Source of the DNA: Haliotis cracherodii
Taxonomy: Eukaryota
DNA length: 64,000 bases
Assembly (NCBI RefSeq): GCF_022045235.1
Contig: NW_027266265.1
Location: 36,766,001-36,830,000, forward strand
Reading direction: 5' to 3'
The translations under genes and the position numbers were made by a program. Below the pieces are notes generated by a model. The model was not told where the DNA came from and searched no databases. It saw only the letters and a program-made list of their open reading frames with translations. Numbering within the stretch: the first letter of the stretch is position 1; each line of letters opens with the position of its first letter. This document shows, piece by piece, positions 1-64,000 of the stretch.

Positions 1-563
1 TAGTTACACATTGTCAAACTGATTTGCGCATGTTTTATTCTTGGTAAGAGTTTTGGTCTAAACACACCTTAAAAGAACACAATAATCACTATCACTACTG
101 CTTCATCATGTCAAGGGCATACGTAAATGGTAGAGACGATTTATATACTTTCTTCTAATGTTTACGACCTAATACATTTTAGCACAATCTTGCCTTTTAC
201 ACCCAATGAAATCTGTTTCAGCAGATAATCGAGCCTGAATATTCTCTGGCGTTGACGATTTATGTAGTTAAAGAGTCATCACTGAATGATTATTATATCA
301 ATATTCAGGCGTTATCTATAGAAATTGAGATATCAATTTTAGTGATGCTCGTATTATCACAACTTCCTTGATAATGAAGTGTACAATTATCAAGATAATA
401 TGTTGAAGATAAGAGAGTTTTCTCAAGAAACGCAGTTGCAAATAAACGCCACAAAACCCTTTTCAGAATCATTCGAAAGCTGTGCTCGAAGCAGCAGAGG
501 CCATTGTACGATTCCGACTATAATGATCACAAGCATGTGCGTATGAATGACTATCAGATAGTG

Positions 564-824
564 GAGTAGAATAGGTCTTCAGCAACCCATGCTTGCCGTA
601 AAAGGTGGATATATATGCTTGTCGTAAAAGGCGTCTAACGGGATCGGGTGGTCAGGCTCGCTGACTTGATTGATGCATGTCATCGATCCCAATTGCGTGG
701 ATCGATGCTAATGATTTTAATCACTGGATTGTCTGGTCCAGACTCGATTATTTACAGACCGCCGTCATATAGCTGGAATATTGTTGAGTGCGGCGTTAAA
801 CAACCAACCAACCAACTAACCAAC
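564..824 (+). mobile_element. SINE family B (5'-truncated, Meta-domain-like), unit 1
   Basis: 9-bp TSD CAGATAGTG (555-563, 825-833), (CAAC)n tail, core GCTTGTCGTAAAAGGCG(A/T)CTAA resembling the MetaSINE domain (recalled, not searched). Confidence 0.8.
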
Positions 825-1430
825 CAGATAGTGATGATACCTGGCGGTTGCCAAAAAGTAAGCGTATCCTTCCTCATCGGTTCCACCGTCACAAACACAT
901 ATAAAGACAAGTCAACAAAGACCACAAAACAAGCTGTTGTTCATATGTCAATCATGTTTTCAGAAGACATTGGTGTACTTTCGGCTTTTAACAGATACTA
1001 CACGCATAAAAAGATGTTGTGAGTTTTCATAGTGACAGTCCCTTTGTGAGAAGAAACCAATATATGTCCCTTTCAGTTAGGAAATAAAGCTGTTGTAGTT
1101 TATAGTTAATGTGCAGTAAGATAAATAAAATTCGGGGAGAATAATGTAGTATCTGGGGACTTCTGCAGTATATTCAGCAGAGGCTATTTTCTTGTGAGCA
1201 GGCTGCTGTATTACACGGAAACGGTTAGCATAGTTGACCCCGTGTGGTACAGTGCTACTGCTGTACTGTGGCGAGGCTGTACTGGTGTGTTGCGTCAGTT
1301 TTCTGGTCTCTTGTTATGTCGTATCACACAGATGCATTATAATGTCTGATGTATGTTGCTCCCACATCATATATTTACTGGATACACACTTTTCAGACCG
1401 TTATCGAATATTTACTTAATAAAGGTTAAA

Positions 1431-1596
1431 GTGAGTGAGTGAGTATGGTTTTACGCCGCTTTTAGCAATATTCCAGCAATATTACGTCGGGGGACATCAG
1501 CAATGGGCTTCACACATTGTACCCATGTCGGAAATCGAACCCGTGTCTTCGGCGTAACGAGCGAACGCTTTAACCACTAGGCTACCCGACCGCCCC
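1431..1596 (-). mobile_element. SINE family A (tRNA-derived, 166 bp), unit 1
   Basis: Minus strand reads GGGGCGGTCGGG-TAGCCTAGTGG (A box) ... GGTTCGATTTCC (B box) ... (ACTC)n tail. Flanked by an imperfect TSD, TAATAAAGGTTAAA / TGATATAGGTTAAA. Confidence 0.88.
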
Positions 1597-1873
1597 TAAA
1601 TGATATAGGTTAAACGTTGAGTATCGAGGACTGTTTGAAATGCAGTTAGACGATTCCAGAGAGAGTGTCTCTGTTTGCCACCTTTATATACGTTGTCTTG
1701 TACTTCCTTAATCGATGTTCATGAATACCAGCTCGCATGTGTACCCGTAGGGTGATAACCTCGGGCCCTTTGATGCGAAAAGAATGCTTACTTTACACCA
1801 TTAAGCTGAGGTGCGTTACTTACCTGGAAGTGGCCAGCCCAAGGTAAATCAATCACGTATAATTCACAAATGG

Positions 1874-1909
1874 TATATATAAAGGACGGGGGAAACTGTT
1901 CCATCATCT
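1874..1909 (+). promoter_or_regulatory. TATA box (TATATATAAA 1874-1883) and Initiator-like TCATCT (predicted TSS ~1906); present in all 15 units
   Basis: Canonical TATA with a pyrimidine-flanked CA ~30 nt downstream, 370 bp upstream of the ATG. Confidence 0.7.
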
Positions 1910-1961
1910 CTTATCTTCACCTTCCGTTGAGACACAGATACGAGTAAAGACCAAACTGCAA

Positions 1962-2240
1962 GTACTATTTTAAGCTTTGCTTGTGATATATATGTATACT
2001 TTTAATTTTTGATTCATCTGCTGCGCATCTGGCTGCTTTTAACCTTCATGTTGAGCCAATTTATAAAAGTACGAATATGTAACATAAAACGTTCTTGTAA
2101 ATTGGGAAATATATGAATGCGGGTGAAATTAAAACTGATAACATAATTCACAATGAGTGGTGTGAACTGAATTTACCAGATGAGTAACGATAACATGCTA
2201 TTTTACCTTTCTTGACAATGATTTTCACGTTACTCAATAG
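1962..2240 (+). other. Probable 5'-UTR intron 1 (unit 1 representative); donor position uncertain (1944, 1958 or 1962)
   Basis: AT-rich segment with several out-of-context ATGs between TSS and start. It ends TTTTCACGTTACTCAATAG| 9 nt before the ATG. Confidence 0.55.
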
Positions 2241-2249
2241 ATACTCAAA

Positions 2250-2857
2250 ATGATGAAGATAGTCGCCGCTCTTGTTGCCTGCCTGGCTGTTACCGCCTTT
2301 GCCGAGCCTACCGGTCTGTATGGTGGAATTGGCGGGTTGAAAGGAGGACTGGGCGGAATTGGCTACGGAATGGGTGGATTGTACGGAGGCCTTGGAGGTC
2401 TTGGAGGCTATGGAGGTCTGTACGGAGGCATGGGAGGTCTATACGGAGGCATGGGAGGTCTATACGGAGGCATGGGAGGTCTATACGGAGGCAAATACGG
2501 ATACGGCATGGGAGGTCTGTACGGAGGACTTGGAGGCTATGGTGGTCTCTACGGAATGGGAGGATACGGAATTGGATTGGGAAAAGGTATTTCACAAAAT
2601 ATGATATCGTTTGTTTATCGTATCCGTAAATATACCTCCAGTCTCGTTTGCAAAATTGTATAATTTACCTATGTGGTATTACTATTTTCCGCGACAAAGC
2701 TGATGACATTTACAAAACATCTTTAAAACTATTCTCTGCTTTCTCTAATATTTGGTATAATTTATCATGCAGCTAGTTTCAAGACTTCGTTGTGACTTAT
2801 CCATACATCCCAACTTTATTCTACTATTTTTTTGTTTCAGGTATCGGCTATTATTGA
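2250..2857 (+). CDS. Secreted Gly/Tyr-rich (GGLYG/GGMGGLY repeat) structural protein, copy 1, 117 aa; join(2250..2586,2841..2857)
   Basis: AAAATG start context, signal peptide MMKIVAALVACLAVTAFA, donor AAG|GTATTT, acceptor TTTTTTTGTTTCAG. Splicing gives KGIGYY-TGA, with AATAAA 66 nt downstream and a TATA box upstream. Confidence 0.9.
2371..2570 (+). repeat. Coding minisatellite: 21-bp GGAGGCATGGGAGGTCTATAC (GGMGGLY) and 18-bp GGAGGTCTTGGAGGCTAT (GGLGGY) units, variable in number between copies
   Basis: Seen directly by comparing the copies. Confidence 0.95.
2587..2840 (+). other. Intron 2 (254 bp, phase 1, GT-AG; unit 1 representative)
   Basis: AAG|GTATTT ... TTTTTTTGTTTCAG|GT. Composition switches abruptly from Gly codons to AT-rich at the donor. 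Confidence 0.88.
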
Positions 2858-2922
2858 GTTATTATCACCTGCAGTGTGATGCTGGCTATTTATGTATTTT
2901 CTCAAACCAATGGAATTGGTTC

Positions 2923-2928
2923 AATAAA
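2923..2928 (+). terminator. Polyadenylation signal AATAAA (unit 1 representative; conserved across units)
   Basis: 66 nt after the spliced stop codon, followed by T-rich sequence. Confidence 0.7.
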
Positions 2929-4803
2929 ATCTTGTCATATTTATTTACGCCTTGAAATTTGTTTGAAAATCTTAATCTGAATTGAATGTTCACAATGGAA
3001 GAGTGATCTATGTTTCTCCATATTGTAAACTGTGGACATAGTACGTGTTGTCGACCAATATCCAAGCACACTTCAATGATATTGCGTTTTACTGCTAGCT
3101 GAGATATCAACTACTGAAATGTGCTATTAAGTTCCTGAGGAAACCGGACATGATGATAAGAGGAGGGATTTTATGCTTGATATATCTCCCACAAAATGTC
3201 ACTTACCCGAGTTCATGTTTCACGGAATATATCATTTGGGCTGCCAGAAAAGGGTTTGATAGCCATTTAAGTACCATAATATCTTGAATTGGCTGTCTGT
3301 ATTTCAATTTGCATTTTAAAAATATGCAGCGAAACAAATAAGCAGGCGTGTCAATTTTTGTCAAAGCAGTCATTGACGATATCAAGGGGTAGACAGTGTG
3401 CACTGTATTGAAATGCAAATGTGTGCGCTGTCCTTGAAAATGAGCGATAGTTGTATTCAGAATACAATCTACATGTTGTTATGGCTCTTTGTATAAGTAA
3501 TATCTGAGCTGCTGCAATAAAACAAACCCGAAAGCCATAGTGATGTAGAGCATCAAAACAAATGTTGCAAGATTCTTACTGCTTGGTTAGAAGGGAATGC
3601 AAACAGTTGGAATTTCCATGACAATAACATATCTTTACAGTTTATCAATTACACAAACAAAACGATTGAATTCAAAAGTAACTATTAAATACGCTTGTCC
3701 GGGTATAGCTTATCAACCTACGAATTATTTGTAATTTCCATCAAACATGTACTTCTTGATTTGATGATGCAATTTAACATTTTGCATACTGCTTATGTAA
3801 TTAATAGGAGAAGTATCTATATAGATATTTAGTTGTGTGTTTACTAACCACCTTCCCTGTAGGTGCTATTTGAAAAATACATATTGATTAAATCAGACCG
3901 CGAATTTGAAGATTCCGAACTGGATTGGTAGGATTGAAGATTACAATGAACAAACAAATAGCTAATATATCCCTATTGTTTGACTACAAAGCAAAAGTGA
4001 CAATCATTTATCAATACAAAGGAGATTGCATTTGGTAACTGTAGAGAGTGAAATTCAGCGGAATAAATAGTCCAACTTTAAAGCGTGTCATAAGTCTTTA
4101 TAACAACAACCAGACTGTAAAAACAAGTCGTTTGATCATGTCTATCTTTGAAAACACCTTTGTGTTATACTTTAAGAGCATTTTCTTCTGAAAACACGTC
4201 TTTACTTTTAGATGTACGGTTTTTCTGGGCAACCCTTATATAGTTACACATTGTCAAACTGATTTGCGCATGTTTTATTCTTGGTAAGAGTTTTGGTCTA
4301 AACACACCTTAAAAGAACACAATAATCACTATCACTACTGCTTCATCATGTCAAGGGCATACGTAAATGGTAGAGACGATTTATATACTTTCTTCTAATG
4401 TTTACGACCTAATACATTTTAGCACAATCTTGCCTTTTACACCCAATGAAATCTGTTTCAGCAGATAATCGAGCCTGAATATTCTCTGGCGTTGACGATT
4501 TATGTAGTTAAAGAGTCATCACTGAATGATTATTATATCAATATTCAGGCGTTATCTATAGAAATTGAGATATCAATTTTAGTGATGCTCGTATTATCAC
4601 AACTTCCTTGATAATGAAGTGTACAATTATCAAGATAATATGTTGAAGATAAGAGAGTTTTCTCAAGAAACGCAGTTGCAAATAAACGCCACAAAACCCT
4701 TTTCAGAATCATTCGAAAGCTGTGCTCGAAGCAGCAGAGGCCATTGTACGATTCCGACTATAATGATCACAAGCATGTGCGTATGAATGACTATCAGATA
4801 GTG

Positions 4804-5064
4804 GAGTAGAATAGGTCTTCAGCAACCCATGCTTGCCGTAAAAGGTGGATATATATGCTTGTCGTAAAAGGCGTCTAACGGGATCGGGTGGTCAGGCTCG
4901 CTGACTTGATTGATGCATGTCATCGATCCCAATTGCGTGGATCGATGCTAATGATTTTAATCACTGGATTGTCTGGTCCAGACTCGATTATTTACAGACC
5001 GCCGTCATATAGCTGGAATATTGTTGAGTGCGGCGTTAAACAACCAACCAACCAACTAACCAAC
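4804..5064 (+). mobile_element. SINE family B, unit 2
   Basis: Array copy of 564..824. Confidence 0.78.
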
Positions 5065-5670
5065 CAGATAGTGATGATACCTGGCGGTTGCCAAAAAGTA
5101 AGCGTATCCTTCCTCATCGGTTCCACCGTCACAAACACATATAAAGACAAGTCAACAAAGACCACAAAACAAGCTGTTGTTCATATGTCAATCATGTTTT
5201 CAGAAGACATTGGTGTACTTTCGGCTTTTAACAGATACTACACGCATAAAAAGATGTTGTGAGTTTTCATAGTGACAGTCCCTTTGTGAGAAGAAACCAA
5301 TATATGTCCCTTTCAGTTAGGAAATAAAGCTGTTGTAGTTTATAGTTAATGTGCAGTAAGATAAATAAAATTCGGGGAGAATAATGTAGTATCTGGGGAC
5401 TTCTGCAGTATATTCAGCAGAGGCTATTTTCTTGTGAGCAGGCTGCTGTATTACACGGAAACGGTTAGCATAGTTGACCCCGTGTGGTACAGTGCTACTG
5501 CTGTACTGTGGCGAGGCTGTACTGGTGTGTTGCGTCAGTTTTCTGGTCTCTTGTTATGTCGTATCACACAGATGCATTATAATGTCTGATGTATGTTGCT
5601 CCCACATCATATATTTACTGGATACACACTTTTCAGACCGTTATCGAATATTTACTTAATAAAGGTTAAA

Positions 5671-5836
5671 GTGAGTGAGTGAGTATGGTTTTACGCCGCT
5701 TTTAGCAATATTCCAGCAATATTACGTCGGGGGACATCAGCAATGGGCTTCACACATTGTACCCATGTCGGAAATCGAACCCGTGTCTTCGGCGTAACGA
5801 GCGAACGCTTTAACCACTAGGCTACCCGACCGCCCC
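5671..5836 (-). mobile_element. SINE family A, unit 2
   Basis: Array copy of 1431..1596. Confidence 0.85.
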
Positions 5837-6145
5837 TAAATGATATAGGTTAAACGTTGAGTATCGAGGACTGTTTGAAATGCAGTTAGACGATTCCAGA
5901 GAGAGTGTCTCTGTTTGCCACCTTTATATACGTTGTCTTGTACTTCCTTAATCGATGTTCATGAATACCAGCTCGCATGTGTACCCGTAGGGTGATAACC
6001 TCGGGCCCTTTGATGCGAAAAGAATGCTTACTTTACACCATTAAGCTGAGGTGCGTTACTTACCTGGAAGTGGCCAGCCCAAGGTAAATCAATCACGTAT
6101 AATTCACAAATGGTATATATAAAGGACGGGGGAAACTGTTCCATC

Positions 6146-6695
6146 ATCTCTTATCTTCACCTTCCGTTGAGACACAGATACGAGTAAAGACCAAACTGCA
6201 AGTACTGGTGGGTGGATTGTACGGAGGCCTTGGAGGTCTTGGAGGCTATGGAGGTCTGTACGGAGGCATGGGAGGTCTATACGGAGGCATGGGAGGTCTA
6301 TACGGAGGCATGGGAGGTCTATACGGAGGCAAATACGGATACGGCATGGGAGGTCTGTACGGAGGACTTGGAGGCTATGGTGGTCTCTACGGAATGGGAG
6401 GATACGGAATTGGATTGGGAAAAGGTATTTCACAAAATATGATATCGTTTGTTTATCGTATCCGTAAATATACCTCCAGTCTCGTTTGCAAAATTGTATA
6501 ATTTACCTATGTGGTATTACTATTTTCCGCGACAAAGCTGATGACATTTACAAAACATCTTTAAAACTATTCTCTGCTTTCTCTAATATTTGGTATAATT
6601 TATCATGCAGCTAGTTTCAAGACTTCGTTGTGACTTATCCATACATCCCAACTTTATTCTACTATTTTTTTGTTTCAGGTATCGGCTATTATTGA
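6146..6695 (+). pseudogene. Copy 2, truncated: 404 bp (intron 1, start codon, signal peptide, first 40 codons) replaced by GG
   Basis: Junction GCAAGTACT-GG-TGGGTGGATTG at 6206-6209. Downstream landmarks shift by 402 bp. Remaining exon 2 (to 6424) and exon 3 (6679..6695) are intact. Confidence 0.85.
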
Positions 6696-8372
6696 GTTAT
6701 TATCACCTGCAGTGTGATGCTGGCTATTTATGTATTTTCTCAAACCAATGGAATTGGTTCAATAAAATCTTGTCATATTTATTTACGCCTTGAAATTTGT
6801 TTGAAAATCTTAATCTGAATTGAATGTTCACAATGGAAGAGTGATCTATGTTTCTCCATATTGTAAACTGTGGACATAGTACGTGTTGTCTACCAATATC
6901 CAAGCACACTTCAATGATATTGCGTTTTACTGCTAGCTGAGATATCAACTACTGAAATGTGCTATTAAGTTCCTGAGGAAACCGGACATGATGATAAGAG
7001 GAGGGATTTTATGCTTGATATATCTCCCACAAAATGTCACTTACCCGAGTTCATGTTTCACGGAATATATCATTTGGGCTGCCAGAAAAGGGTTTGATAG
7101 CCATTTAAGTACCATAATATCTTGAATTGGCTGTCTGTATTTCAATTTGCATTTTAAAAATATGCAGCGAAACAAATAAGCAGGCGTGTCAATTTTTGTC
7201 AAAGCAGTCATTGACGATATCAAGGGGTAGACAGTGTGCACTGTATTGAAATGCAAATGTGTGCGCTGTCCTTGAAAATGAGCGATAGTTGTATTCACAA
7301 TACAATCTACATGTTGTTATGGCTCTTTGTATAAGTAATATCTGAGCTGCTGCAATAAAACAAACCCGAAAGCCATAGTGATGTAGAGCATCAAAACAAA
7401 TGTTGCAAGATTCTTACTGCTTGGTTAGAAGGGAATGCAAACAGTTGGAATTTCCATGACAATAACATATCTTTACAGTTTATCAATTACACAAACAAAA
7501 CGATTGAATTCAAAAGTAACTATTAAATACGCTTGTCCGGGTATAGCTTATCAACCTACGAATTATTTGTAATTTCCATCAAACATGTACTTCTTGATTT
7601 GATGATGCAATTTAACATTTTGCATACTGCTTATGTAATTAATAGGAGAAGTATCTATATAGATATTTAGTTGTGTGTTTACTAACCACCTTCCCTGTAG
7701 GTGCTATTTGAAAAATACATATTGATTAAATCAGACCGCGAATTTGAAGATTCCGAACTGGATTGGTAGGATTGAAGATTACAATGAACAAACAAATAGC
7801 TAATATATCCCTATTGTTTGACTACAAAGCAAAAGTGACAATCATTTATCAATACAAAGGAGATTGCATTTGGTAACTGTAGAGAGTGAAATTCAGCGGA
7901 ATAAATAGTCCAACTTTAAAGCGTGTCATACGTAAATGGTAGAGACGATTTATATACTTTCTTCTAATGTTTACGACCTAATACATTTTAGCACAATCTT
8001 GCCTTTTACACCCAATGAAATCTGTTTCAGCAGATAATCGAGCCTGAATATTCTCTGGCGTTGACGATTTATGTAGTTAAAGGGTCATCACTGAATGATT
8101 ATTATATCAATATTCAGGCGTTATCTATAGAAATTGAGATATCAAATTTAGTGATGCTCGTATTATCACAAATTCCTTGATAATGAAGCGTACAATTATC
8201 AAGATAATATGTTGAAGATAAGAGAGTTTTCTCAAGAAACGCAGTTGCAAATAAACGCCACAAAACCCTTTTCAGAATCATTCGAAAGCTGTGCTCGAAG
8301 CAGCAGAGGCCATTGTACGATTCCGACTATAATGATCACAAGCATGTGCGTATGAATGACTATCAGATAGTG

Positions 8373-8633
8373 GAGTAGAATAGGTCTTCAGCAACCCATG
8401 CTTGCCGTAAAAGGTGGATATATATGCTTGTCGTAAAAGGCGTCTAACGGGATCGGGTGGTCAGGCTCGCTGACTTGATTGATGCATGTCATCGATCCCA
8501 ATTGCGTGGATCGATGCTAATGATTTTAATCACTGGATTGTCTGGTCCAGACTCGATTATTTACAGACCGCCGTCATATAGCTGGAATATTGTTGAGTGC
8601 GGCGTTAAACAACCAACCAACCAACTAACCAAC
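8373..8633 (+). mobile_element. SINE family B, unit 3
   Basis: Array copy of 564..824. Confidence 0.78.
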
Positions 8634-9239
8634 CAGATAGTGATGATACCTGGCGGTTGCCAAAAAGTAAGCGTATCCTTCCTCATCGGTTCCACCGTCA
8701 CAAACACATATAAAGACAAGTCAACAAAGACCACAAAACAAGCTGTTGTTCATATGTCAATCATGTTTTCAGAAGACATTGGTGTACTTTCGGCTTTTAA
8801 CAGATACTACACGCATAAAAAGATGTTGTGAGTTTTCATAGTGACAGTCCCTTTGTGAGAAGAAACCAATATATGTCCCTTTCAGTTAGGAAATAAAGCT
8901 GTTGTAGTTTATAGTTAATGTGCAGTAAGATAAATAAAATTCGGGGAGAATAATGTAGTATCTGGGGACTTCTGCAGTATATTCAGCAGAGGCTATTTTC
9001 TTGTGAGCAGGCTGCTGTATTACACGGAAACGGTTAGCATAGTTGACCCCGTGTGGTACAGTGCTACTGCTGTACTGTGGCGAGGCTGTACTGGTGTGTT
9101 GCGTCAGTTTTCTGGTCTCTTGTTATGTCGTATCACACAGATGCATTATAATGTCTGATGTATGTTGCTCCCACATCATATATTTACTGGATACACACTT
9201 TTCAGACCGTTATCGAATATTTACTTAATAAAGGTTAAA

Positions 9240-9405
9240 GTGAGTGAGTGAGTATGGTTTTACGCCGCTTTTAGCAATATTCCAGCAATATTACGTCGGG
9301 GGACATCAGCAATGGGCTTCACACATTGTACCCATGTCGGAAATCGAACCCGTGTCTTCGGCGTAACGAGCGAACGCTTTAACCACTAGGCTACCCGACC
9401 GCCCC
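9240..9405 (-). mobile_element. SINE family A, unit 3
   Basis: Array copy of 1431..1596. Confidence 0.85.
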
Positions 9406-10058: not shown

Positions 10059-10645
10059 ATGATGAAGATAGTCGCCGCTCTTGTTGCCTGCCTGGCTGTT
10101 ACCGCCTTTGCCGAGCCTACCGGTCTGTATGGTGGAATTGGCGGGTTGAAAGGAGGACTGGGCGGAATTGGCTACGGAATGGGTGGATTGTACGGAGGCC
10201 TTGGAGGTCTTGGAGGCTATGGAGGTCTGTACGGAGGCATGGGAGGTCTATACGGAGGCATGGGAGGTCTATACGGAGGCAAATACGGATACGGCATGGG
10301 AGGTCTGTACGGAGGACTTGGAGGCTATGGTGGTCTCTACGGAATGGGAGGATACGGAATTGGATTGGGAAAAGGTATTTCACAAAATATGATATCGTTT
10401 GTTTATCGTATCCGTAAATATACCTCCAGTCTCGTTTGCAAAATTGTATAATTTACCTATGTGGTATTACTATTTTCCGCGACAAAGCTGATGACATTTA
10501 CAAAACATCTTTAAAACTATTCTCTGCTTTCTCTAATATTTGGTATAATTTATCATGCAGCTAGTTTCAAGACTTCGTTGTGACTTATCCATACATCCCA
10601 ACTTTATTCTACTATTTTTTTGTTTCAGGTATCGGCTATTATTGA
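10059..10645 (+). CDS. Gly/Tyr-rich secreted protein copy 3, 110 aa; join(10059..10374,10629..10645)
   Basis: As copy 1, with one fewer 21-bp GGMGGLY repeat. Confidence 0.88.
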
Positions 10646-47488: not shown

Positions 47489-47593
47489 TAAATAATATAG
47501 GTTAAACATTGAGTATCGAGGACTGTTTGAAATGCAGTTAGACGATGACAGAGAGAGTGTCTCTGTTTGCCACCTTTATATACGTTGTCTTGT

Positions 47594-47759
47594 GGGGAGG
47601 TCGGGTAGCCTAGTGGTTTAAGCGTTCGCTCGTCATGCCGAAGACCCGGGTTCGATTCCCGACATGGGTACAATGTGTGAAGCCCATTTCTGGTGTCCCC
47701 CGCCGTGATATTGCTGGAATATTGCAAAAAGCGGCGTAAAACCATACTCACTCACTCAT
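47594..47759 (+). mobile_element. SINE family A, extra younger insertion in unit 12
   Basis: Full length with A box and B box GGTTCGATTCC. Perfect 10-bp TSD GTTGTCTTGT (47584-47593, 47760-47769). Site is empty in 13 other units. Confidence 0.95.
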
Positions 47760-51698: not shown

Positions 51699-51864
51699 GT
51701 GAGTGAGTGAGTATGGTTTTACGCCGCTTTTAGCAATATTCCAGCAATATCACGGCGGGGGACATCAGCAATGGGCTTCACACATTGTACCTATGTCGGA
51801 AATCGAACCCGTGTCTTCGGCGTAACGAGCGAACGCTTTAACCACTAGGCTACCCGACCGCCCC
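51699..51864 (-). mobile_element. SINE family A, unit 13 (old copy)
   Basis: As unit 12. Confidence 0.87.
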
Positions 51865-51969
51865 TAAATAATATAGGTTAAACATTGAGTATCGAGGACT
51901 GTTTGAAATGCAGTTAGACGATGACAGAGAGAGTGTCTCTGTTTGCCACCTTTATATACGTTGTCTTGT

Positions 51970-52135
51970 GGGGAGGTCGGGTAGCCTAGTGGTTTAAGCG
52001 TTCGCTCGTCATGCCGAAGACCCGGGTTCGATTCCCGACATGGGTACAATGTGTGAAGCCCATTTCTGGTGTCCCCCGCCGTGATATTGCTGGAATATTG
52101 CAAAAAGCGGCGTAAAACCATACTCACTCACTCAT
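51970..52135 (+). mobile_element. SINE family A, extra younger insertion in unit 13
   Basis: Same insertion and TSD as 47594..47759, offset by 4376 bp. Confidence 0.95.
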
Positions 52136-53322: not shown

Positions 53323-55230
53323 GTTATTATCACCTGCAGTGTGATGCTGGCTATTTATGTATTTTCTCAAACCAATGGAATTGGTTCAATAAAATCTTGT
53401 CATATTTATTTACGCCTTGAAATTTGTTTGAAAATCTTAATCTGAATTGAATGTTCACAATGGAAGAGTGATCTATGTTTCTCCATATTGTAAACTGTGG
53501 ACATAGTACGTGTTGTCGACCAATATATCCAAGCACACTTCAATGATATTGCGTTTTACTGCTAGCTGAGATATCAACTACTGAAATGTGCTATTAAGTT
53601 CCTGAGGAAACCGGACATGATGATAAGAGGAGGGATTTTATGCTTGATATATCTCCCACAAAATGTCACTTACCCGAGTTCATGTTTCACGGGAATGTAT
53701 CATTTGGGCTGCCAGAAAAGGGTTGGATAGCCATTTAAGTACCATAATATCTTGAATTGGCTGTCTGTATTTCAATTTGCATTTTAAAAACATGCAGCGA
53801 AACAAATAAGCAGGCGTGTCAATTTTTGTCAAAGCAGTCATTGACGGTATCAAGGGGTAGACAGTGTGCACTGTATTGAAATGCAAATGTGTGCGCTGTC
53901 CTTGAAAATGAGCGATAGTTGTATTCAGAATACAATCTACATGTTGTTATGGCGCTTTGTATAAATAATATCTGAGCTGCTGCAATAAAACAAACCCGAA
54001 AGCCATAGTGATGTAGAGCATCAAAACAAATGTTGCAAGATTCTTACTGCTTGGTTAGAAGGGAATGCATACAGTTGGAATTTCCATGACAATAACATAT
54101 CTTTACAGTTTATCAATTACACAAACAAAACGATTGAATTCAAAAGTAACTATTAAATACGCTTGTCCGGGTATAGCTTATCAACCTACGAATTTTTTGT
54201 AATTTCCATCAAACATGTACTTCTTGATTTGATGATGCAATTTAACATTTTGCATACTGCTTATGTAATTAATAGGAGAAGTATCTATATAGATATTTAG
54301 TTGTGTGTTTACTAACCACCTTCCCTGTAGGCGCTATTTGTAAAATACATATTGATTAAATCAGACCGCGAATTTGAAGATTCCGAACTGGATTGGTAGG
54401 ATTGAAGATCACAATGAACAAACAAATAGCTAATATATCCCTATTGCTTGACTACAAAGCAAAAGTGACAATCATTTATCAATACAAAGGAGATTGCATT
54501 TGGTAACTGTAGAGAGTGAAATTCAGCGGAATAAATGGTCCAACTTTAAAGCGTGGCATAAGTCTTTATAACAACAACCATGTCTATCTTTGAAAACACC
54601 TTTGTGTTATACTTTAAGAGCATTTTCTTCTGAAAACACACGTCTTTACTTTTAGATGTACGTTTTTTCTGGGCAACCCTTATATAGTTACACATTGTCA
54701 AACTGATTTGCGCGTGTTTTATTCTTGGTAAGAGTTTTGGTCTAAACACGCCTCATCACTATCAAAACTGCTTCATCATGTCAAGGGCATACGTAAAGGG
54801 TAGAGACGATTTATATACTTTCTTCTAATGTTTACGACCTAATACATTTTAGCACAATCTTGCCTTTTACACCCAATGAAATCTGTTTCAGCAGATAATC
54901 GAGCCTGAATATTCTCTGGCGTTGACGATTTATGTAGTTAAATGGTCATCACTGAATGATTATTATATCAATATTCAGGCGTTATCTATAGAAATTGAGA
55001 TATCAAATTTAGTGATGCTCGTATTATCACAAATTCCTTGATAATGAAGTGTACAATCATCAAGATGGTATGTTGAAGATAAGAGAGTTTTCTCAAGAAA
55101 CGCAGTTGCAAATAAACGCCACAAAACCCTTTTCAGAATCATTCGAAAGCTGTGCTCGAAGCAGAGGCCATTGTACGATTCCGACTATAATGATCACAAG
55201 CATGTGCGTATGAATGACTATCAGATAGTG

Positions 55231-55498
55231 GATTCCGGGGTAGAATAGGTCTTCAGCAACCCATGCTTGCCGTAAAAGGTGGATATATATGCTTGTCGTA
55301 AAAGGCGACTAACGGGATCGGGTGGTCAGGCTCGCTGACTTGGTTGATGCATGTCATCGATCCCAATTGCGTGGATCGATGCTAATGATTTTAATCACTG
55401 GATTGTCTGGTCCAGACTCGATTATTTACAGACCGCCGTCATATAGCTGGAATATTGTTGAGTGCGGCGTTAAACAACCAACCAACCAACTAACCAAC
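55231..55498 (+). mobile_element. SINE family B, unit 14
   Basis: As unit 11. Confidence 0.78.
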
Positions 55499-56104
55499 CA
55501 GATAGTGATGATACCTGGCGGTTGCCAAAAAGTAAGCGTATCCTTCCTCATCGGTTCCACCGTCACAAACACATATAAAGACAAGTCAACAAAGACGAGA
55601 AAACAAGCTGTTGTTCATATGTCAATCATGTTTTCAGAAGACATTGATGTACTTTCGGCTTTTAACAGATACTACACGCATAAAAAGATGTTGTGAGTTT
55701 TCATAGTGACAGTCCCTTTGTGAGAAGAAACCAATATATGTCCCTTTCAGTTAGGAAATAAAGCTGTTGTAGTTTATAGTTATTGTGCAGTAAGATAAAT
55801 AAAATTCGGGGAGAATAATGTAGTATCTGGGAACTTCTGCAGTATATTCAGCAGAAGCTATTTTCTTGTGAGCAGGCTGCTGTATTACACGGAAACGGTT
55901 AGCATAGTTGACCCCGTGTGGTACAGTGCTACTGCAGTACTGTGGCGAGGCTGTACTGGTGTGTTGCGTCAGTTTTCTGGTCTCTTGTTATGTCGTATCA
56001 CACAGATGCATTATAATGTCTGATGTATGTTGCTCCCACATCATATATTTACTGGATACACACTTTTCAGACCATTATCGAATATTTACTTAATATAGGT
56101 TAAA

Positions 56105-56269
56105 GTGAGTGAGTGAGTATGGTTTTACGCCGCTTTTAGCAATATTCCAGCAATATCAAGGCGGGGACACCAGCAATGGGCTTCACACATTGTACCCATG
56201 TCGGAAATCGAACCCGTGTCTTCGGCGTAACGAGCGAACGCTTTAACCGCTAGGCTACCCGACCGCCCC
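56105..56269 (-). mobile_element. SINE family A, unit 14
   Basis: Array copy. Confidence 0.85.
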
Positions 56270-56923
56270 TAAATAATATAGGTTAAACATTGATTATCGA
56301 GGACTGTTTGAAATGCAGTTAGACGATGCCAGAGAGAGTGTGTCTGTTTGCCACCTTTATATACGTTGTCTTGTACTTCCTTAATCGATGTTTCATGAAT
56401 AGCAGCTCGCATGTGTACCCGTAGGGTGATAACCTCGGGCCCTTTGATGCGAAAAGAATGCTTTACACCATTAAGCTGAGGTGCGTTACTTACCTGGAAG
56501 TGGCCAGCCCAAGGTAAATCAATCACGTATAATTCACAAATGGTATATATAAAGGACGGGGGAAACTGTTCCATCATCTCTTATCTTCACCTTCCGTTGA
56601 GACACAGACAGATACGAGTAAAGACCAAACTGCAAGTACTATTTTAAGCTTTGCTTGTGATATATATGTATACTTTTAATTTTTGATTCATCTGCTGCGC
56701 ATCTGGCTGTTTTTAATCTGCATGTTGAGCCAATTTATAAAAGTACGAATATGTAACATAAAACGTTCTTGTAAACTGGGAAATATATGAATGCGGGTGA
56801 AAGCAAAACTGATAACATAATTCACAATGAGTGGTGTGAACTGAATTTACCAGATATGTAACGATAACATGCTGTTTTACCTTTCTTGACAATGATTTTC
56901 ACGTTACTCAATAGATACTCAAA

Positions 56924-57549
56924 ATGATGAAGATAGTCGCCGCTCTTGTTGCCTGCCTGGCTGTTACCGCCTTTGCCGAGCCTACCGGTCTGTATGGTGG
57001 AATTGGCGGGTTGAAAGGAGGACTGGGCGGAATTGGCTACGGAATGGGTGGATTGTACGGAGGCCTTGGAGGTCTTGGAGGCTATGGAGGTCTTGGAGGC
57101 TATGGAGGTCTATACGGAGGCATGGGAGGTCTATACGGAGGCATGGGAGGTCTATACGGAGGCATTGGAGGTCTATACGGAGGCAAATACGGATACGGCA
57201 TGGGAGGTCTGTACGGAGGACTTGGAGGCTATGGTGGTCTCTACGGAATGGGAGGATACGGAATTGGATTGGGCAAAGGTATTTCACAAAATATGATATC
57301 ACTTGTTTATCGTATCCGTAAATATACCTCCAGTCTCGTTTGCAAAATTGTATAATTTACCTATGTGGTATTACTATTTTCCGCGACAAAGCTGATGACA
57401 TTTACAAAACATCTTTAAAACTATTCTCTGCTTTCTCTAATATTTGGTATAATTTATCATGCAGCTAGTTTCAAGACTTCGTTGTGACTTATCCATACAT
57501 CCCAACTTTATTCTACTATTTTTTTGTTTCAGGTATCGGCTATTATTGA
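56924..57549 (+). CDS. Gly/Tyr-rich secreted protein copy 14, 123 aa; join(56924..57278,57533..57549)
   Basis: Extra GGLGGY, two GGMGGLY, one GGIGGLY, no MH insertion. Confidence 0.88.
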
Positions 57550-59471
57550 GTTATTATCACCTGCAGTGTGATGCTGTCTATTTATGTATTTTCTCAAACC
57601 AATGGAATTGGTTCAATAAAATCTTGTCATATTTATTTACGCCTTGAAATTTGTTTGAAAATCTGAATCTGAATTGAATGTTCACAATGGAAGAGTGATC
57701 TATGTTTCGCCATATTGTAAACTGTGGACATAGTACGTGTTGTCGACAAATATATCCAAGCACACTTCAATGATATTGCGTTTTACTGCTAGCTGAGATA
57801 TCAACTACTGAAATGTGCTATTAAGTTCCTGAGGAAACCGGACATGATGATAAGAGGAGGGATTTTATGCTTGATATATCTCCCACAAAATGTCACTTAC
57901 CCGAGTTCATGTTTCACGGGAATGTATCATTTGGGCTGCCAGAAAAGGGTTGGATAGCCATTTAAGTACCATAATATCTTGAATTGGCTGTCTGTATTTC
58001 AATTTGCATTTTAAAAACATGCAGCGAAACAAATAAGCAGGCGTGTCAATTTTTGTCAAAGCAGTCATTGACGGTATCAAGGGGTAGACAGTGTGCACTG
58101 TATTGAAATGCAAATGTGTGCGCTGTCCTTGAAAATGAGCGATAGTTGTATTCAGAATACAATCTACATGTTGTTATGGCGCTTTGTATAAATAATATCT
58201 GAGCTGCTGCAATAAAACAAACCCGAAAGCCATAGTGATGTAGAGCATCAAAACAAATGTTGCAAGATTCTTACTGCTTGGTTAGAAGGGAATGCATACA
58301 GTTGGAATTTCCATGACAATAACATATCTTTACAGTTTATCAATTACACAAACAAAACGATTGAATTCAAAAGTAACTATTAAATACGCTTGTCCGGGTA
58401 TAGCTTATCAAACTACGATTTTTTTGTAATTTCCATCAAACATGTACTTCTTGATTTGATGATGCAATTTAACATTTTGCATACTGCTTATGTAATTAAT
58501 AGGAGAAGTATCTATATAGATATTTAGTTGTGTGTTTACTAACCACCTTCCCTGTAGGTGCTATTTGTAAAATACATATTGATTAAATCAGACCGCGAAT
58601 TTGAAGATTCCGAACTGGATTGGTAGGATTGAAGATCACAATGAACAAACAAATAGCTAATATATCCCTATTGTTTGACTACAAAGCAAAAGTAACAATC
58701 ATTTATCAATATAAAGGAGATTGCATTTGGTAACTGTAGAGAGTGAAATTCAGCGGAATAAATGGTCCAACTTTAAAGCGTGGCATAAGTCTTTATAACA
58801 ACAACCATGTCTATCTTTGAAAACACCTTTGTGTTATACTTTAAGAGCATTTTCTTCTGAAAACACACGTCTTTACTTTTAGATGTACGGTTTTTCTGGG
58901 CAACCCTTATATAGTTACACATTGTCAAACTGATTTGCGCGTGTTTTATTCTTGGTAAGAGTTTTGGTCTAAACACGCCTTAAAAGAACACAATCATCAC
59001 TATCACTACTGCTTCATCATGTCAAGGGCATACGTAAAGGGTAGAGACGATTTATATACTTTCTTCTAATGTTTACGACTTAATACATTTTAGCACAATC
59101 TTGCCTTTTACACCCAATGAAATCTGTTTCAGCAGATAATCGAGCCTGAATATTCTCTGGCGTTGACGATTTATGTAGTTAAATGGTCATCATTGAATGA
59201 TTATTATATCAATATTCAGGCGTTATCTATAGAAATTGAGATATCAAATTTAGTGATGCTCGTATTATCACAAATTCCTTGATAATGAAGTGTACAATTA
59301 TCAAGATAATATGTTGAAGATAAGAGAGTTTTCTCAAGAAACGCAGTTGCAAATAAACGCCACAAAACCCTTTTCAGAATCATTCGAAAGCTGTGCTCGA
59401 AGCAGAGGCCATTGTACGATTCCAACTATAATGATCACAAGCATGTGCGTATGAATGACTATCAGATAGTG

Positions 59472-59725
59472 GATTCCGGGGTAGAATAGGTCTTCAGCAA
59501 CCCATGCTTGCCGTAAAAGGTGGATATATATGCTTGTCGTAAAAGGCGACTAACGGGATCGGGTGGTCAGGCTCGCTGACTTGGTTGATGCATGTCATCG
59601 ATCCCAATTGCGTGGATCGATGCTAATGATTTTAATCACTGGATTGTCTGGTCCAGACTCGATATATAGCTGGAATATTGTTGAGTGCGGCGTTAAACAA
59701 CCAACCAACCAACCAACTAACCAAC
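59472..59725 (+). mobile_element. SINE family B, unit 15
   Basis: As unit 11, with an internal ~18-bp deletion and one extra CAAC. Confidence 0.78.
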
Positions 59726-60291
59726 CAGATAGTGATGATACCTGGCTGTTGCCAAAAAGTAAGCGTATCCTTCCTCATCGGTTCCACCGTCACAAACACA
59801 TATAAAGACAAGTCAACAAAGACGAGAAAACAAGCTGTTGTTCGGCTTTTAACAGATACTACACGCATAAAAAGATGTTGTGAGTTTTCATAGTGACAGT
59901 CCCTTTGTGAGAAGAAACCAATATATGTCCCTTTCAGTTAGGAAATAAAGCTGTTGTAGTTTATAGTTATTGTGCAGTAAGATAAATAAAATTCGGGGAG
60001 AATAATGTAGTATCTGGGGACTGCTGCAGTATATTCAGCAGAAGCTATTTTCTTGTGAGCAGGCTGCTGTATTACACGGAAACGGTTAGCATAGTTGACC
60101 CCGTGTGGTACAGTGCTACTGCAGTACTGTGGCGAGGCTGTACTGGTGTGTTGCGTCAGTTTTCTGGTCTCTTGTTATGTCGTATCACACAGATGCATTA
60201 TAATGTCTGATGTATGTTGCTCCCACATCATATATTTACTGGATACACACTTTTCAGACCATTATCGAATATTTACTTAATATAGGTTAAA

Positions 60292-60459
60292 GTGAGTGAG
60301 TAAGTATGGTTTTACGCCGCTTTTAGCAATATTCCAGCAATATCACGGCGGGGACACCAGCAATGGGCTTCACACATTGTACCCATGTCGGAAATCGAAC
60401 CCGTGTCTTCGGCGTTATAACGAGCGAACGCTTTAACCACTAGGCTACCCGAACGCCCC
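60292..60459 (-). mobile_element. SINE family A, unit 15
   Basis: Array copy. Confidence 0.85.
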
Positions 60460-61109
60460 TAAATAATATAGGTTAAACATTGAGTATCGAGGACTGTTTG
60501 AAATGCAGTTAGACGATGCCAGAGAGAGTGTCTCTGTTTGCCACCTTTATATACGTTGTCTTGTACTTCCTTAATCGGTGTTTCATGAATAGCAGCTCGC
60601 ATGTGTACCCGTAGGGTGATAACCTCGGGCCCTTTGATGCGAAAAGAATGCTTTACACCATTAAGCTGAGGTGCGTTACTTACCTGGAAGTGGCCAGCCC
60701 AAGGTAAATCAATCACGTATAATTCACAAATGGTATATATAAAGGACGGGGGAAACTGTTCCATCATCTCTTATCTTCACCTTCCGTTGAGACACAGATA
60801 CGAGTAAAGACCAAACTGCAAGTACTATTTTAAGCTTTGCTTGTGATATATATGTATACTTTTATTTTTTGATTCATCTGCTGCGCATCTGGCTGCTTTT
60901 AATCTTCATGTTGAGCCAATTTATAAAAGTACGAATATGTAACATAAAACGTTCTTGTAAATTGGGAAATATATGAATGCGGGTGAAAGTAAAACTGATA
61001 ACATAATTCACAATGAGTGGTGTGAACTGAATTTACCAGATGAGTAACGATAACATGCTATTTTACCTTTCTTGACAATGATTTTCACGTTACTCAAAAA
61101 ATACTCAAA

Positions 61110-61714
61110 ATGATGAAGATAGTCGCCGCTCTTGTTGCCTGCCTGGCTGTTACCGCCTTTGCCGAGCCTACCGGTCTGTATGGTGGAATTGGCGGGTTGA
61201 AAGGAGGACTGGGCGGAATTGGCTACGGAATGGGTGGATTGTACGGAGGCCTTGGAGGTCTTGGAGGCTATGGAGGTCTTGGAGGCTATGGAGGTCTATA
61301 CGGAGGCATGGGAGGTCTATACGGAGGCATTGGAGGTCTATACGGAGGCAAATACGGATACGGCATGGGAGGTCTGTACGGAGGACTTGGAGGCTATGGT
61401 GGTCTCTACGGAATGGGAGGATACGGAATTGGATTGGGCAAAGGTATTTCACAAAATATGATATCATTTGTTTATCGTATCCGTAAATATACCTCCAGTC
61501 TCGTTTGCAAAATTGTATAATTTACCTATGTGGTATTACTATTTTCCGCGTCAAAGCTGATGACATTTACAAAACATCTTTAAAACTATTCTCTGCTTTC
61601 TCTAATATTTGGTATAATTTATCATGCAGCTAGTTTCAAGACTTCGTTGTGACTTATCCATACATCCCAACTTTATTCTACTATTTTTTTGTTTCAGGTA
61701 TCGGCTATTATTGA
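61110..61714 (+). CDS. Gly/Tyr-rich secreted protein copy 15, 116 aa; join(61110..61443,61698..61714); candidate intron-1 acceptor lost
   Basis: Frame intact, but upstream CAATAG has become CAAAAA at 61095-61100. Confidence 0.78.
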
Positions 61715-63636
61715 GTTATTATCACCTGCAGTGTGATGCTGGCTATTTATGTATTTTCTCAAACCAATGGAATTGGTTCAATAAAATCTTGTCATATTTA
61801 TTTACGCCTTGAAATTTGTTTGAAAATCTTAATCTGAATTGAATGTTCACAATGGAAGAGTGATCTATGTTTCTCCATATTGTAAACTGTGGACATAGTA
61901 CGTGTTGTCGACAAATATATCCAAGCACACTTCAATGATATTGCGTTTTACTGCTAGCTGAGATATCAACTACTGAAATGTGCTATTAAGTTCCTGAGGA
62001 AACCGGACATGATGATAAGAGGAGGGATTTTATGCTTGATATATCTCCCACAAAATGTCACTTACCCGAGTTCATGTTTCACGGGAATGTATCATTTGGG
62101 CTGCCAGAAAAGGGTTTGATAGCCATTTAAGTACCATAATATCTTGAATTGGCTGTCTGTATTTCAATTTGCATTTTAAAAACATGCAGCGAAACAAATA
62201 AGCAGGCGTGTCAATTTTTGTCAAAGCAGTCATTGACGATATCAAGGGGTAGACAGTGTGCACTGTATTGAAATGCAAATGTGTGCGCTGTCCTTGAAAA
62301 TGAGCGATAGTTGTATTCACAATACAATCTACATGTTGTTATGGCGCTTTGTATAAATAATATCTGAGCTGCTGCAATAAAACAAACCCGAAAGCCATAG
62401 TGATGTAGAGCATCAAAACAAATGTTGCAAGATTCTTACTGCTTGGTTAGAAGGGAATGCATACAGTTGGAATTTCCATGACAATAACATATCTTTACAG
62501 TTTATCAATTACACAAACAAAACGATTGAATTCAAAAGTAACTATTAAATACGCTTGTCCGGGTATAGCTTATCAAACTACGATTTTTTTGTAATTTCCA
62601 TCAAACATGTACTTCTTGATTTGATGATGCAATTTAACACTTTGCATACTGCTTATGTAATTAATAGGAGAAGTATCTATATAGATATTTAGTTGTGTGT
62701 TTACTAACCACCTTCCCTGTAGGCGCTATTTGTAAAATACATATTGATTAAATCAGACCGCGAATTTGAAGATTCCGAACTGGATTGGTAGGATTGAAGA
62801 TTACAATGAACAAACAAATAGCTAATATATCCCTATTGTTTGACTACAAAGCAAAAGTGACAATCATTTATCAATATAAAGGAGATTGCATTTGGTAACT
62901 GTAGAGAGTGAAATTCAGCGGAATAAATGGTCCAACTTTAAAGCGTGGCATAAGTCTTTATAACAACAACCATGTCTATCTTTGAAAACACCTTTGTGTT
63001 ATACTTTAAGAGCATTTTCTTCTGAAAACACACGTCTTTACTTTTAGATGTACGGTTTTTCTGGGCAACCCTTATATAGTTACACATTGTCAAACTGATT
63101 TGCGCGTGTTTTATTCTTGGTAAGAGTTTTGGTCTAAACACGCCTTAAAAGAACACAATAATCACTATCACTACTGCTTCATCATGTCAAGGGCATACGT
63201 AAAGGGTAGAGACGATTTATATACATTCTTCTAATGTTTACGACCTAATACATTTTAGCACAATCTTGCCTTTTACACCCAATGAAATCTGTTTCAGCAG
63301 ATAATCGAGCCTGAATATTCTCTGGCGTTGAGGATTTATGTAGTTAAAGGGTCATCATTGAATGATTATTATATCAATATTCAGGCGTTATCTATAGAAA
63401 TTGAGATATCAAATTTAGTGATGCTCGTATTATCACAAATTCCTTGATAATGAAGTGTACAATTATCAAGATGATATGTTGAAGATAAGAGAGTTTTCTC
63501 AAGAAACGCAGTTGCAAATAAACGCCACAAAACCCTTTTCAGAATCATTCGAAAGCTGTGCTCGAAGCAGAGGCCATTGTACGATTCCGACTATAATGAT
63601 CACAAGCATGTGCGTATGAATGACTATCAGATAGTG

Positions 63637-63904
63637 GATTCCGGGGTAGAATAGGTCTTCAGCAACCCATGCTTGCCGTAAAAGGTGGATATATATGCTT
63701 GTCGTAAAAGGCGACTAACGGGATCGGGTGGTCAGGCTCGCTGACTTGGTTGATGTATGTCATCGATCCCAATTGCGTGGATCGATGCTAATGATTTTAA
63801 TCACTGGATTGTCTGGTCCAGACTCGATTATTTACAGACCGCCGTCATATAGCTGGAATATTGTTGAGTGCGGCGTTAAACAACCAACCAACCAACTAAC
63901 CAAC
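63637..63904 (+). mobile_element. SINE family B, unit 16
   Basis: As unit 11. Confidence 0.78.
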
Positions 63905-64000
63905 CAGATAGTGATGATACCTGGCGGTTGCCAAAAAGTAAGCGTATCCTTCCTCATCGGTTCCACCGTCACAAACACATATAAAGACAAGTCAACAAAG

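Follow-up and report, generated by a model that had tools for sequence, protein, structure and literature searches.

What does an abalone make from a small secreted-protein gene that recurs, nearly unchanged, along tens of kilobases of its genome? The window analyzed here, a stretch of 64,000 nt taken as a whole, contained 15 gene-bearing units arranged head-to-tail, ~4.2 kb each and all on the + strand. The unit period was 4190-4376 bp, with a single exception of 3569 bp, in agreement with the sequence-only reading, which had described one gene per ~4.2 kb on the same strand. Gene landmarks numbered 15 TATA anchors, 15 intron-2 donors, 15 intron-2 acceptors, 15 poly(A) signals and 14 start codons. 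The 14 intact copies and one truncated copy described earlier were recovered as 14 reading frames that are complete and, in unit 2, one copy with a deletion. The count of 14 held for start codons, yet full normal anatomy was found in 13 copies, because unit 15 lacks the intron-1 AG acceptor. The window start (1-1871) is a unit tail at 99.7% match and the window end (61801-64000) matches unit sequence at 97.0%, so the array boundary is not visible within the window. The earlier statement that the array runs past both edges was upheld as to unit sequence at both ends; more genes are likely past the window edges. The array and the landmarks of unit 1 were:

1..64000, + strand: the array; both window ends lie inside unit sequence; sub-blocks of units 1-10 and units 11-15, split 100/100
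1874..1883, + strand: TATA box of unit 1, putative in function, found in 15/15 units
1905..1957, + strand: exon 1, non-coding; putative start ~30 nt past the TATA box, end set by RNA-like contigs
1958..2240, + strand: intron 1, 283 bp, GC-AG, in the 5'UTR, from RNA-like contigs of one run (X1)
2241..2586, + strand: exon 2; ATG at 2250, predicted 18-aa signal peptide, Gly/Leu/Tyr/Met repeats with a 21-nt repeat unit
2587..2840, + strand: intron 2, 254 bp, GT-AG, its flanks joined by RNA-like contigs
2841..2945, + strand: exon 3; last codons GIGYY, stop ending at 2857, AATAAA at 2923; 3' end approximate

The gene therefore has three exons, with a GC-AG intron in the 5'UTR and a GT-AG intron before GIGYY. 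The 5'UTR intron with its GC donor is an addition to the earlier description of the gene. Its edges were placed from loose contig ends at 1957 and 2241 in run X1, and the GC donor context was unchanged in 14/15 units, unit 9 having a change at +6. In RNA-like contigs the transcript is spliced at intron 2, which was removed in X1 (3 contigs) and X2 (2 contigs) and was unjoined in X13 and X14. These RNA-like runs are coded, their RNA status was guessed by the tool and none is recorded as RNA; a further three, chosen for their species label, contained next to no family words and were uninformative either way. Contig depths were sums over contigs and were excluded from expression ranking and copy counting. 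The C-terminus encoded by exon 3 is the same as in the Haliotis asinina model P0002. Every ~4.2-kb unit is complete as a transcription unit, carrying a TATA box, three exons and a poly(A) signal of its own. Two other open reading frames were rejected: a read-through frame ending in SSLVCKIV enters intron 2, is skipped by the RNA-like contigs and has an ending absent from the relatives, and a spacer frame at 705-1022 lies over a SINE-like repeat, is broken in several units and had a Pfam match (E 0.025) below cut-off.

The gene of unit 2 has kept its TATA box, exon 1 and GC donor, and has lost to a deletion most of intron 1, its acceptor, the ATG and that half of exon 2 which encodes the signal peptide; it is a probable pseudogene. 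The copies after unit 1 were:

6112..6770, + strand: unit 2 gene; 402-bp deletion with its junction at ~6206
10059..10645, + strand: unit 3 coding span, 110 aa
14280..14887, + strand: unit 4 coding span, 117 aa
18522..19130, + strand: unit 5 coding span, 117 aa
22765..23351, + strand: unit 6 coding span, 110 aa
26983..27569, + strand: unit 7 coding span, 110 aa
31201..31808, + strand: unit 8 coding span, 117 aa
35451..36058, + strand: unit 9 coding span, 117 aa
39693..40300, + strand: unit 10 coding span, 117 aa
43929..44539, + strand: unit 11 coding span, 118 aa
48305..48915, + strand: unit 12 coding span, 118 aa
52691..53322, + strand: unit 13 coding span, 125 aa
56924..57549, + strand: unit 14 coding span, 123 aa
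61110..61714, + strand: unit 15 coding span, 116 aa; intron-1 AG acceptor lost at 61098-61100

The units also carry two interspersed repeats, the first of which had very high depth in sequence runs and hundreds of loose contig ends at 4806. The tRNA-like part of the second (5760-5831) scored 25.6 bits, under the gathering threshold of 29.

4806..5072, + strand: repeat 1, SINE-like, one per unit, 16 copies in the window
5670..5836, - strand: repeat 2, tRNA-headed and SINE-like, one per unit
47584..47759, + strand: extra inverted copy of repeat 2 in unit 11, 176 bp, with a 9-bp target-site duplication
51960..52135, + strand: extra repeat 2 insertion in unit 12, at a site identical to that in unit 11

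Pairwise divergence between units was 0.02-1.7% and grew with distance along the array (Mantel rho 0.55, p 0.00015). Unit pairs differed by 1-71 substitutions plus indels, and no pair was identical, the closest (units 1 and 3) being a single substitution apart. Variants common to several units occurred in blocks, and 305 of the 1485 informative site pairs failed the four-gamete test, as expected of mosaic sites. The spacer was as homogeneous as the gene. From the TATA box through exon 1, together with the signal and N-terminal code, there were 0 variable sites in 188 bp versus 4.1 per 100 non-coding positions (P about 0.0004, for regions picked by gene anatomy after the table had been seen, and leaving out one 4-bp indel in unit 14). 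The identical signal peptide noted in the sequence-only reading was confirmed at the nucleotide level, with no variable site across the 14 complete copies in the code for the signal peptide and the residues just after it (nt 2250-2351, unit 1 numbering), and length changes in the coding region preserved the frame in 14/14 copies. The first 26 residues were identical inside each set compared, namely 16/16 units of the H. asinina model P0008, 12/12 units of the H. cracherodii models and 14/14 copies in the window, and differed between the three sets, the comparison outside the window being at the protein level. Based on this likeness within sets, the similarity of neighbors and the exchange between copies, the array is evolving in concert, and unequal crossing-over or conversion accounts for the turnover of its units.

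The spliced proteins are 110-125 aa long and comprise six distinct sequences, all ending in GKGIGYY. The signal peptide was recognized by inspection (MMK, a hydrophobic core and AFA), with a model helix at residues 2-17 that was the sole structured part of an AlphaFold model (pLDDT 45). The mature chain is 53-54% Gly, 15% Leu and 15-16% Tyr; all 14 Tyr adjoin Gly, Cys is absent, Lys numbers four (three in the mature part) and Arg none, and the net charge is +1.8 at a pI of 8.8. Ala, Thr, Ser and Val together account for 1 of 94 residues, with no His and one Pro, and the unit 1 protein holds six GGLYGG motifs. Silk-like structural proteins have been defined by a signal peptide and at least 25% Gly in an 80-residue window (McDougall et al. 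2016), and the chain reaches that Gly content. Searches returned no Pfam family, chitin-binding domains included, and no PDB sequence at E 1; the nearest Atlas clusters were arthropod cuticle proteins, a weak match (0.76) below the threshold for recognition. None of three Waite cross-linking peptides matched within one mismatch, and the protein contains no dibasic processing site. Four family motifs had no match across seven supplementary files of PMC4944945. Family motifs were likewise not found in the first 24 of 27 supplementary files of an adult H. laevigata shell proteome (PMC6003135), a search in another species, with long tryptic pieces and long cells cut. Trypsin would divide the window protein into pieces of 13, 51 and 30 aa. 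Two chance matches in unrelated proteins were seen in the PMC6003135 files.

A profile search of 1.84 billion representatives found four relatives, all from Haliotis, with low complexity limiting its sensitivity; the earlier attribution to a mollusc fits every relative found. In H. asinina there are at least ten single-unit models and one 1967-aa model (P0008) on the same scaffold of 52,850,021 bp, the RefSeq models being XP_067657837-842, 846-849, 799 and 820. They share with the window gene a near-identical signal peptide, an EPTGLYG start, a YGGKYG core and a GIGLGKGIGYY end, and differ in being predicted proteins of 101 aa with fewer GGLYGG repeats and with His, Phe and Pro. Three H. cracherodii models (XP_071095135/146/156, with 7+3+2 units, so that the longest chain is seven) and a single H. 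rubra model (XP_046565582) have a related signal peptide, GGLYGG and a K-GIG(Y)GYY-type end; their N-terminus is more diverged than that of the H. asinina models, and they may be a paralogous subfamily. P0008 chains 17 units and shows 16 signal peptides spaced exactly 109 aa apart. As promoter, stop codon and poly(A) signal recur in every window unit, such chained models are probably not true polyproteins, a reading we rejected, and P0008 looks false as a single protein. The automatic RefSeq names are six and unrelated: "glycine-rich protein-like", "neuropeptide-like protein 31" and "PE_PGRS54-like" in H. asinina, "shematrin-like protein 2" and "spidroin-1-like" in H. cracherodii, and "ctenidin-1-like" in H. 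rubra. These names and the chained models, of 1967 and 979 aa, bear out in part the expectation of mis-annotation in assemblies. The main text of the H. asinina genome paper contains neither "tandem" nor "glycine". A literature search found no description of the family, and the sequence-only reading had not recognized the gene as a named one; the family is unnamed and abalone-wide, and on our best reading of the sequences it would be an abalone-specific scleroprotein family.

One of the named proteins closest in character is Has-tsfgr1 (EST DW986319), an abalone protein of 114 aa with a signal peptide, more than 52% Gly with Leu and Tyr, and a Tyr end, whose expression is specific to the larval (trochophore) shell field and the outer mantle fold. 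The window gene resembles it in source, size (~114 aa), signal peptide, composition and Tyr end. However, of the 11 GGYGLGL-type repeats of Has-tsfgr1, the window protein has none exactly and one at one mismatch, the GYKGY end is replaced by GKGIGYY throughout, and no array has been reported for tsfgr1. Identity was rejected on these motifs; the window gene's orthologue in H. asinina is a different 101-aa protein. Has-GRBP and Has-CL10Contig2 were also ruled out on motifs. Shematrins carry a basic C-terminal run such as RKKKY. The window protein has a shematrin-type Tyr end (YY) and no such run, with one Lys near its end, and the profile search gave no homology to Pinctada shematrins (four proteins, all Haliotis, low complexity limiting sensitivity). 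In PMC4759782, Pinctada shell matrix genes, including shematrins, are tandemly duplicated and the authors state a dosage idea. There, as in the window, secreted Gly-rich repeat proteins with a Tyr end are encoded in tandem, but as five diverged paralogues on two scaffolds, as against at least 15 near-identical units with a homogenized spacer.

Suckerins of squid ring teeth combine a Gly/Tyr/Leu amorphous segment containing GGLYGG with Ala-rich beta-sheet blocks bounded by Pro. The window protein, which is much smaller, has the amorphous module and not the Pro-flanked crystalline one. Arrays of silk-moth chorion, keratin-associated protein and histone genes supply bulk product from tandem copies that exchange sequence; the window array differs in having a single-gene unit on one strand.

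We lean, by a small margin of confidence, towards a cross-linkable scleroprotein held at high dosage through unequal crossing-over, with the organic layer of the larval or juvenile shell as its likeliest destination. The signal peptide would be cut after AFA, and a disordered chain of ~95-110 aa would be secreted by shell-field or outer-mantle-fold cells. Tyrosine cross-links, made by peroxidase or phenoloxidase, would turn it into an insoluble organic skin on larval or early juvenile shells (shell-field pellicle, periostracum), and many promoters working in parallel would yield product in bulk over a short time. The divergence pattern, the shared insertion, the invariant promoter and signal code, the splicing, the arrayed relatives and the Gly/Tyr chemistry speak for this reading. 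By analogy, so may Has-tsfgr1 and the snail mantle, where Gly/Tyr-rich secreted genes adjoin or accompany peroxidase. Against it stand the adult H. laevigata files, the unmatched Waite peptides and an analogy in composition, which is readily convergent. Dosage is not tightly policed, because 2/15 copies (units 2 and 15) are damaged. Abalone egg envelopes are ZP-protein based, so an egg coat is an unlikely destination.

The same bulk scleroprotein could instead serve another tanned structure, such as radula membrane or teeth, jaws, larval operculum or epidermal cuticle, which we regard as possible although distinctly less probable. The squid ring-tooth motif GGLYGG, the weak proximity to arthropod cuticle proteins and the lack of the family motif in the adult shell proteome files searched all point that way, whereas the Ala/Thr/His blocks of suckerins and any chitin-binding domain are missing and, of the abalone analogues, the one best documented belongs to the shell field. 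That the array encodes a glycine-rich defense peptide, antimicrobial or of mucus, and serves quick induction appears improbable. Gly-rich secreted antimicrobial peptides are known, one armadillidin contains GGLYGG, and two of the automatic names (neuropeptide-like protein 31, ctenidin-1-like) suggest this role. However, the strong charge of the cationic types (armadillidin, ctenidin, NLP-31) is not matched by a protein without Arg at pI 8.8, the armadillidins compared having a pI of 11.4-12.1; the copies are homogenized rather than diversified; and a dibasic site is missing.

Copy number itself might be a neutral by-product, without dosage benefit, of unequal crossing-over seeded by SINEs around a real structural gene. 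Two SINE-like repeats per unit would be recombination substrates, and the damaged copies and homogeneous spacer are in keeping with this; we nevertheless give it little credence, as arrays of the same family occur in the H. asinina and H. cracherodii models despite diverged proteins, and promoter and signal code are invariant between copies. The same arrayed models count against an assembly artefact, in which one or a few genes were falsely expanded. The near-identity of units 1 and 3 speaks in its favor, and the reading is already largely refuted and very improbable: no two units are identical, variants lie in shared blocks, and neighboring units 11 and 12 share an insertion with a target-site duplication. 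In addition, two genome-sized runs from two studies cover 30/30 bins, and most listed contigs had depths of about 400-1700 versus 28-45 for three divergent partial matches, a hint that gives no copy number; one run may be the window's source. With divergent units, mosaic sites and a shared SINE insertion, the array proposed earlier is a real multi-copy one.

The family architecture, with at least 15 near-identical units in the window, 17 chained plus at least ten in H. asinina and at least seven in the H. cracherodii models, far exceeds what is described in pearl oyster, where 2-5 diverged shell genes stand in tandem. For that animal, tandem duplication of shell genes and the dosage idea have both been published (PMC4759782), so the surprise lies in scale and homogeneity and not in principle. 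Shell-gene copy number as transcript dose, a published hypothesis, becomes directly testable in a farmed animal, in which larval shell traits, the number of copies and the expression of each can all be measured. The family is also an annotation trap, RefSeq chaining its copies into "PE-PGRS" or "spidroin" proteins of 1-2 kaa, and the minimal GGLYGGM chain, which in nature parallels the squid ring-tooth proteins with an amorphous part alone, has some materials interest. We tentatively speculate, as a bolder and less probable proposal than the scleroprotein reading itself, that the first shell layer of abalone is built of a scleroprotein particular to the genus, whose gene is kept in the manner of rDNA or early histone genes as a homogenized array of tens of copies, enabling a handful of shell-field cells to deposit the larval pellicle in a matter of hours. 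Were this true, growth and robustness of the larval shell would be controlled by copy number, a trait both heritable and measurable, and this control would have escaped notice to date because annotation merges the copies into spurious giant proteins.

The array in the window comprised many complete, co-oriented transcription units. TATA boxes, intron-2 donors, intron-2 acceptors and poly(A) signals each numbered 15 and start codons 14. The units recurred at a period of 4190–4376 bp, with the exception of unit 2 (3569 bp), in which a 402-bp deletion had removed the intron-1 acceptor, the ATG and the signal peptide; a second deletion, of 271 bp, in its spacer was flanked by a short CATA microhomology (window ~7925). 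The 14 complete reading frames encoded six distinct proteins of 110–125 aa, which differed by whole repeats and all had a GKGIGYY end. These counts bear out the 14 intact copies and one truncated copy proposed in the sequence-only reading, as well as its claim that the array reaches past both edges, as the window starts and ends inside unit sequence, placing the array boundary out of view.

Four of 20 listed sequencing runs were compared with one unit: two genome-sized and two RNA-like, the latter from two studies with two organism labels and with RNA status being the tool's guess. Contigs of both RNA-like runs joined 2584 to 2839, skipping the 254 nt (GT..AG) of intron 2, a junction absent from contigs of both genome-sized runs. 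Intron 1 (5'UTR, 283 nt) was represented by loose ends at 1957 and 2241 in one RNA-like run, and its GC donor assigns it to the minor GC-AG type. Depth in the RNA-like runs was high over the three exons and two SINE-like repeats and low over introns and spacer. Together, depth and junctions showed a spliced transcript, whose level and tissue lie outside what depth shows. The GC donor of this intron (window 1958-2240 in unit 1) was present in 15/15 units, a minor type in a gene seemingly built for bulk output. Unit 9 had a +6 change at this donor. In unit 15 the intron-1 AG acceptor was lost (window 61098-61100); the closest AG upstream is 67 nt away from the ATG and the intron contains several upstream ATGs, so translation of this copy may be poor. 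The region from TATA to exon 1 plus the signal/N-terminal code (188 bp in all) contained no variable site, compared with 4.1 per 100 bp elsewhere (P about 0.0004, post hoc and disregarding a 4-bp indel in unit 14), suggesting constraint on the copies.

A 43-bp segment (4999-5041 and 5688-5730; 81% identity) is common to both SINE-like repeats in opposite orientation, so every unit contains an inverted pair. A 1066-nt contig of the RNA-like run X1 connected 5073-5656 to 1700-1945 and was about 184 bases shorter; it seems to lack the second repeat (5670-5836), whose insertion would then be polymorphic among arrays or species.

Pairs of units differed by 1–71 substitutions (0.02–1.7%, mean 1.0%), and no two were identical. 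Divergence grew with distance, from 0.56% between neighbours to ~1.5% at distances of 11–13 (Mantel rho 0.55, p 0.00015, 20,000 permutations), 305 of 1485 informative site pairs were incompatible with one tree (unit 2 excluded from the site counts), and units 1-10 and 11-15 formed two blocks (split 100/100). Homogenisation of the units was local. Units 11 and 12 also had a common insertion:

47584-47759, unit 11: young inverted SINE-like insertion with 9-bp target-site duplication
51960-52135, unit 12: the same insertion and duplication

Its presence in both units points to a single insertion event with the unit copied afterwards, making it a clock for array turnover. On established theory, the gradient, the incompatible sites and the shared insertion would be marks of unequal crossing-over or conversion. 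Neighbouring units 11-13 had a Met-His insertion (MHMGG) in the repeat; H. asinina relatives also have His. An assembly artefact is extremely improbable, since no unit pair is identical, divergence depends on distance, and two neighbours have an insertion with its target-site duplication. The two genome-sized runs (two studies) covered 30/30 bins of one unit, with depths of 437–1685 in 13 of 16 listed pieces and 28–45 in three divergent partial matches. This depth, which is no copy number and comes in part from a run that may be the assembly's source, fits tens of copies.

Indexed searches and an exhaustive profile search returned four clusters of relatives, all Haliotis, in keeping with the suggested mollusc gene. 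The H. asinina orthologue (101 aa, both ends as in the window protein) had at least 10 accessions among those listed, at most four per sequence (XP_067657837-842, 846-849), in two near-consecutive runs on one 52,850,021-bp scaffold; as none is labelled an isoform, they are probably separate loci. The same scaffold holds XP_067657820 (P0008), a model of 1967 aa in which 16 signal peptides recur exactly every 109 aa and 17 GIGLGK ends occur; the best reading is that gene prediction chained an array into one protein. In H. asinina, models P0002-P0005 and models P0006 and P0008 seem to represent two sub-arrays of one scaffold that differ in their protein variants, as with the two window blocks. 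RefSeq models of H. cracherodii, all on a single 89-Mb contig, contained 7, 3 and 2 units; in H. rubra there was a single model. The first 26 residues were identical among units inside each array and different between species. Judged from these models, the array arrangement appears to be kept across abalones (window, H. asinina, H. cracherodii). Models P0008-P0011, in which prediction fused tandem copies into long repeat proteins, were named PE_PGRS54-like, spidroin-1-like and shematrin-like, in line with the anticipated mis-annotation; internal repeated signal peptides could serve to find other hidden arrays. The words "tandem" and "glycine" had no match in the available main text of the HiFi assembly paper (PMC11393055). 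A full-text literature search, with subscription papers outside its coverage, found no description of family or array, consistent with the view that this is not a named gene.

By inspection, the protein starts with an 18-residue signal-like peptide; helix 2-17 was the sole confident element of its structure model (mean pLDDT 45). The following chain (exon-2 part) was 54% Gly, 15% Leu, 15% Tyr and 6% Met, with no Cys, a net charge of +1.8 and Gly adjoining 14/14 Tyr. Pfam, PDB and Atlas gave no reliable match. A basic tail is a feature of shematrins; the absence of such a tail and of a profile match ruled out a shematrin. Its glycine content is that required of silk-like structural proteins in the available part of PMC4944945. 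Its size and composition are those of the abalone shell gene Has-tsfgr1 as far as PMC2034539 was available, but differences in repeat and C-terminus ruled out identity. Likewise, suckerins were ruled out by the lack of a crystalline block (PMC6393770, in part).

We propose that the Gly/Leu/Tyr chain would be secreted and cross-linked through tyrosine into an insoluble layer, probably the shell's organic skin, and that dosage may be the reason for the array. The shell-skin target is supported by analogy with Has-tsfgr1, whose expression is limited to the shell field of larvae and the outer mantle fold of juveniles (PMC2034539, in part), and with Gly/Tyr-rich secreted genes expressed beside or with peroxidase in the periostracal groove of Lymnaea and Cepaea (PMC6007483, PMC7894901, in part). 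Against this reading, three cross-linking peptides quoted in the available text of those two papers had no match to the window protein within one mismatch. Also against it, though weakly, a search of 24 of the 27 supplementary files on the nacre and prism proteome of adult H. laevigata (PMC6003135, in part) found no family motif; this absence would be compatible with a larval or periostracal protein as well. A bulk protein of radula, jaw, operculum or cuticle is the less probable destination, at roughly one chance in five. A defence peptide is improbable, as the protein fell outside the cationic Gly-rich antimicrobials as described in the available part of PMC7017220, and neutral amplification of the array is similarly improbable.

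For pearl oyster, tandemly arranged shell genes and the idea of dosage have already been published; in the available text, the genes form small sets of diverged paralogues, in contrast to the near-identical units here (PMC4759782, PMC4897951). The window family is unnamed and belongs to a known class of proteins, and its homogenised arrangement is unusually large; the array is real, expressed (RNA-like runs) and maintained in array form among abalones.
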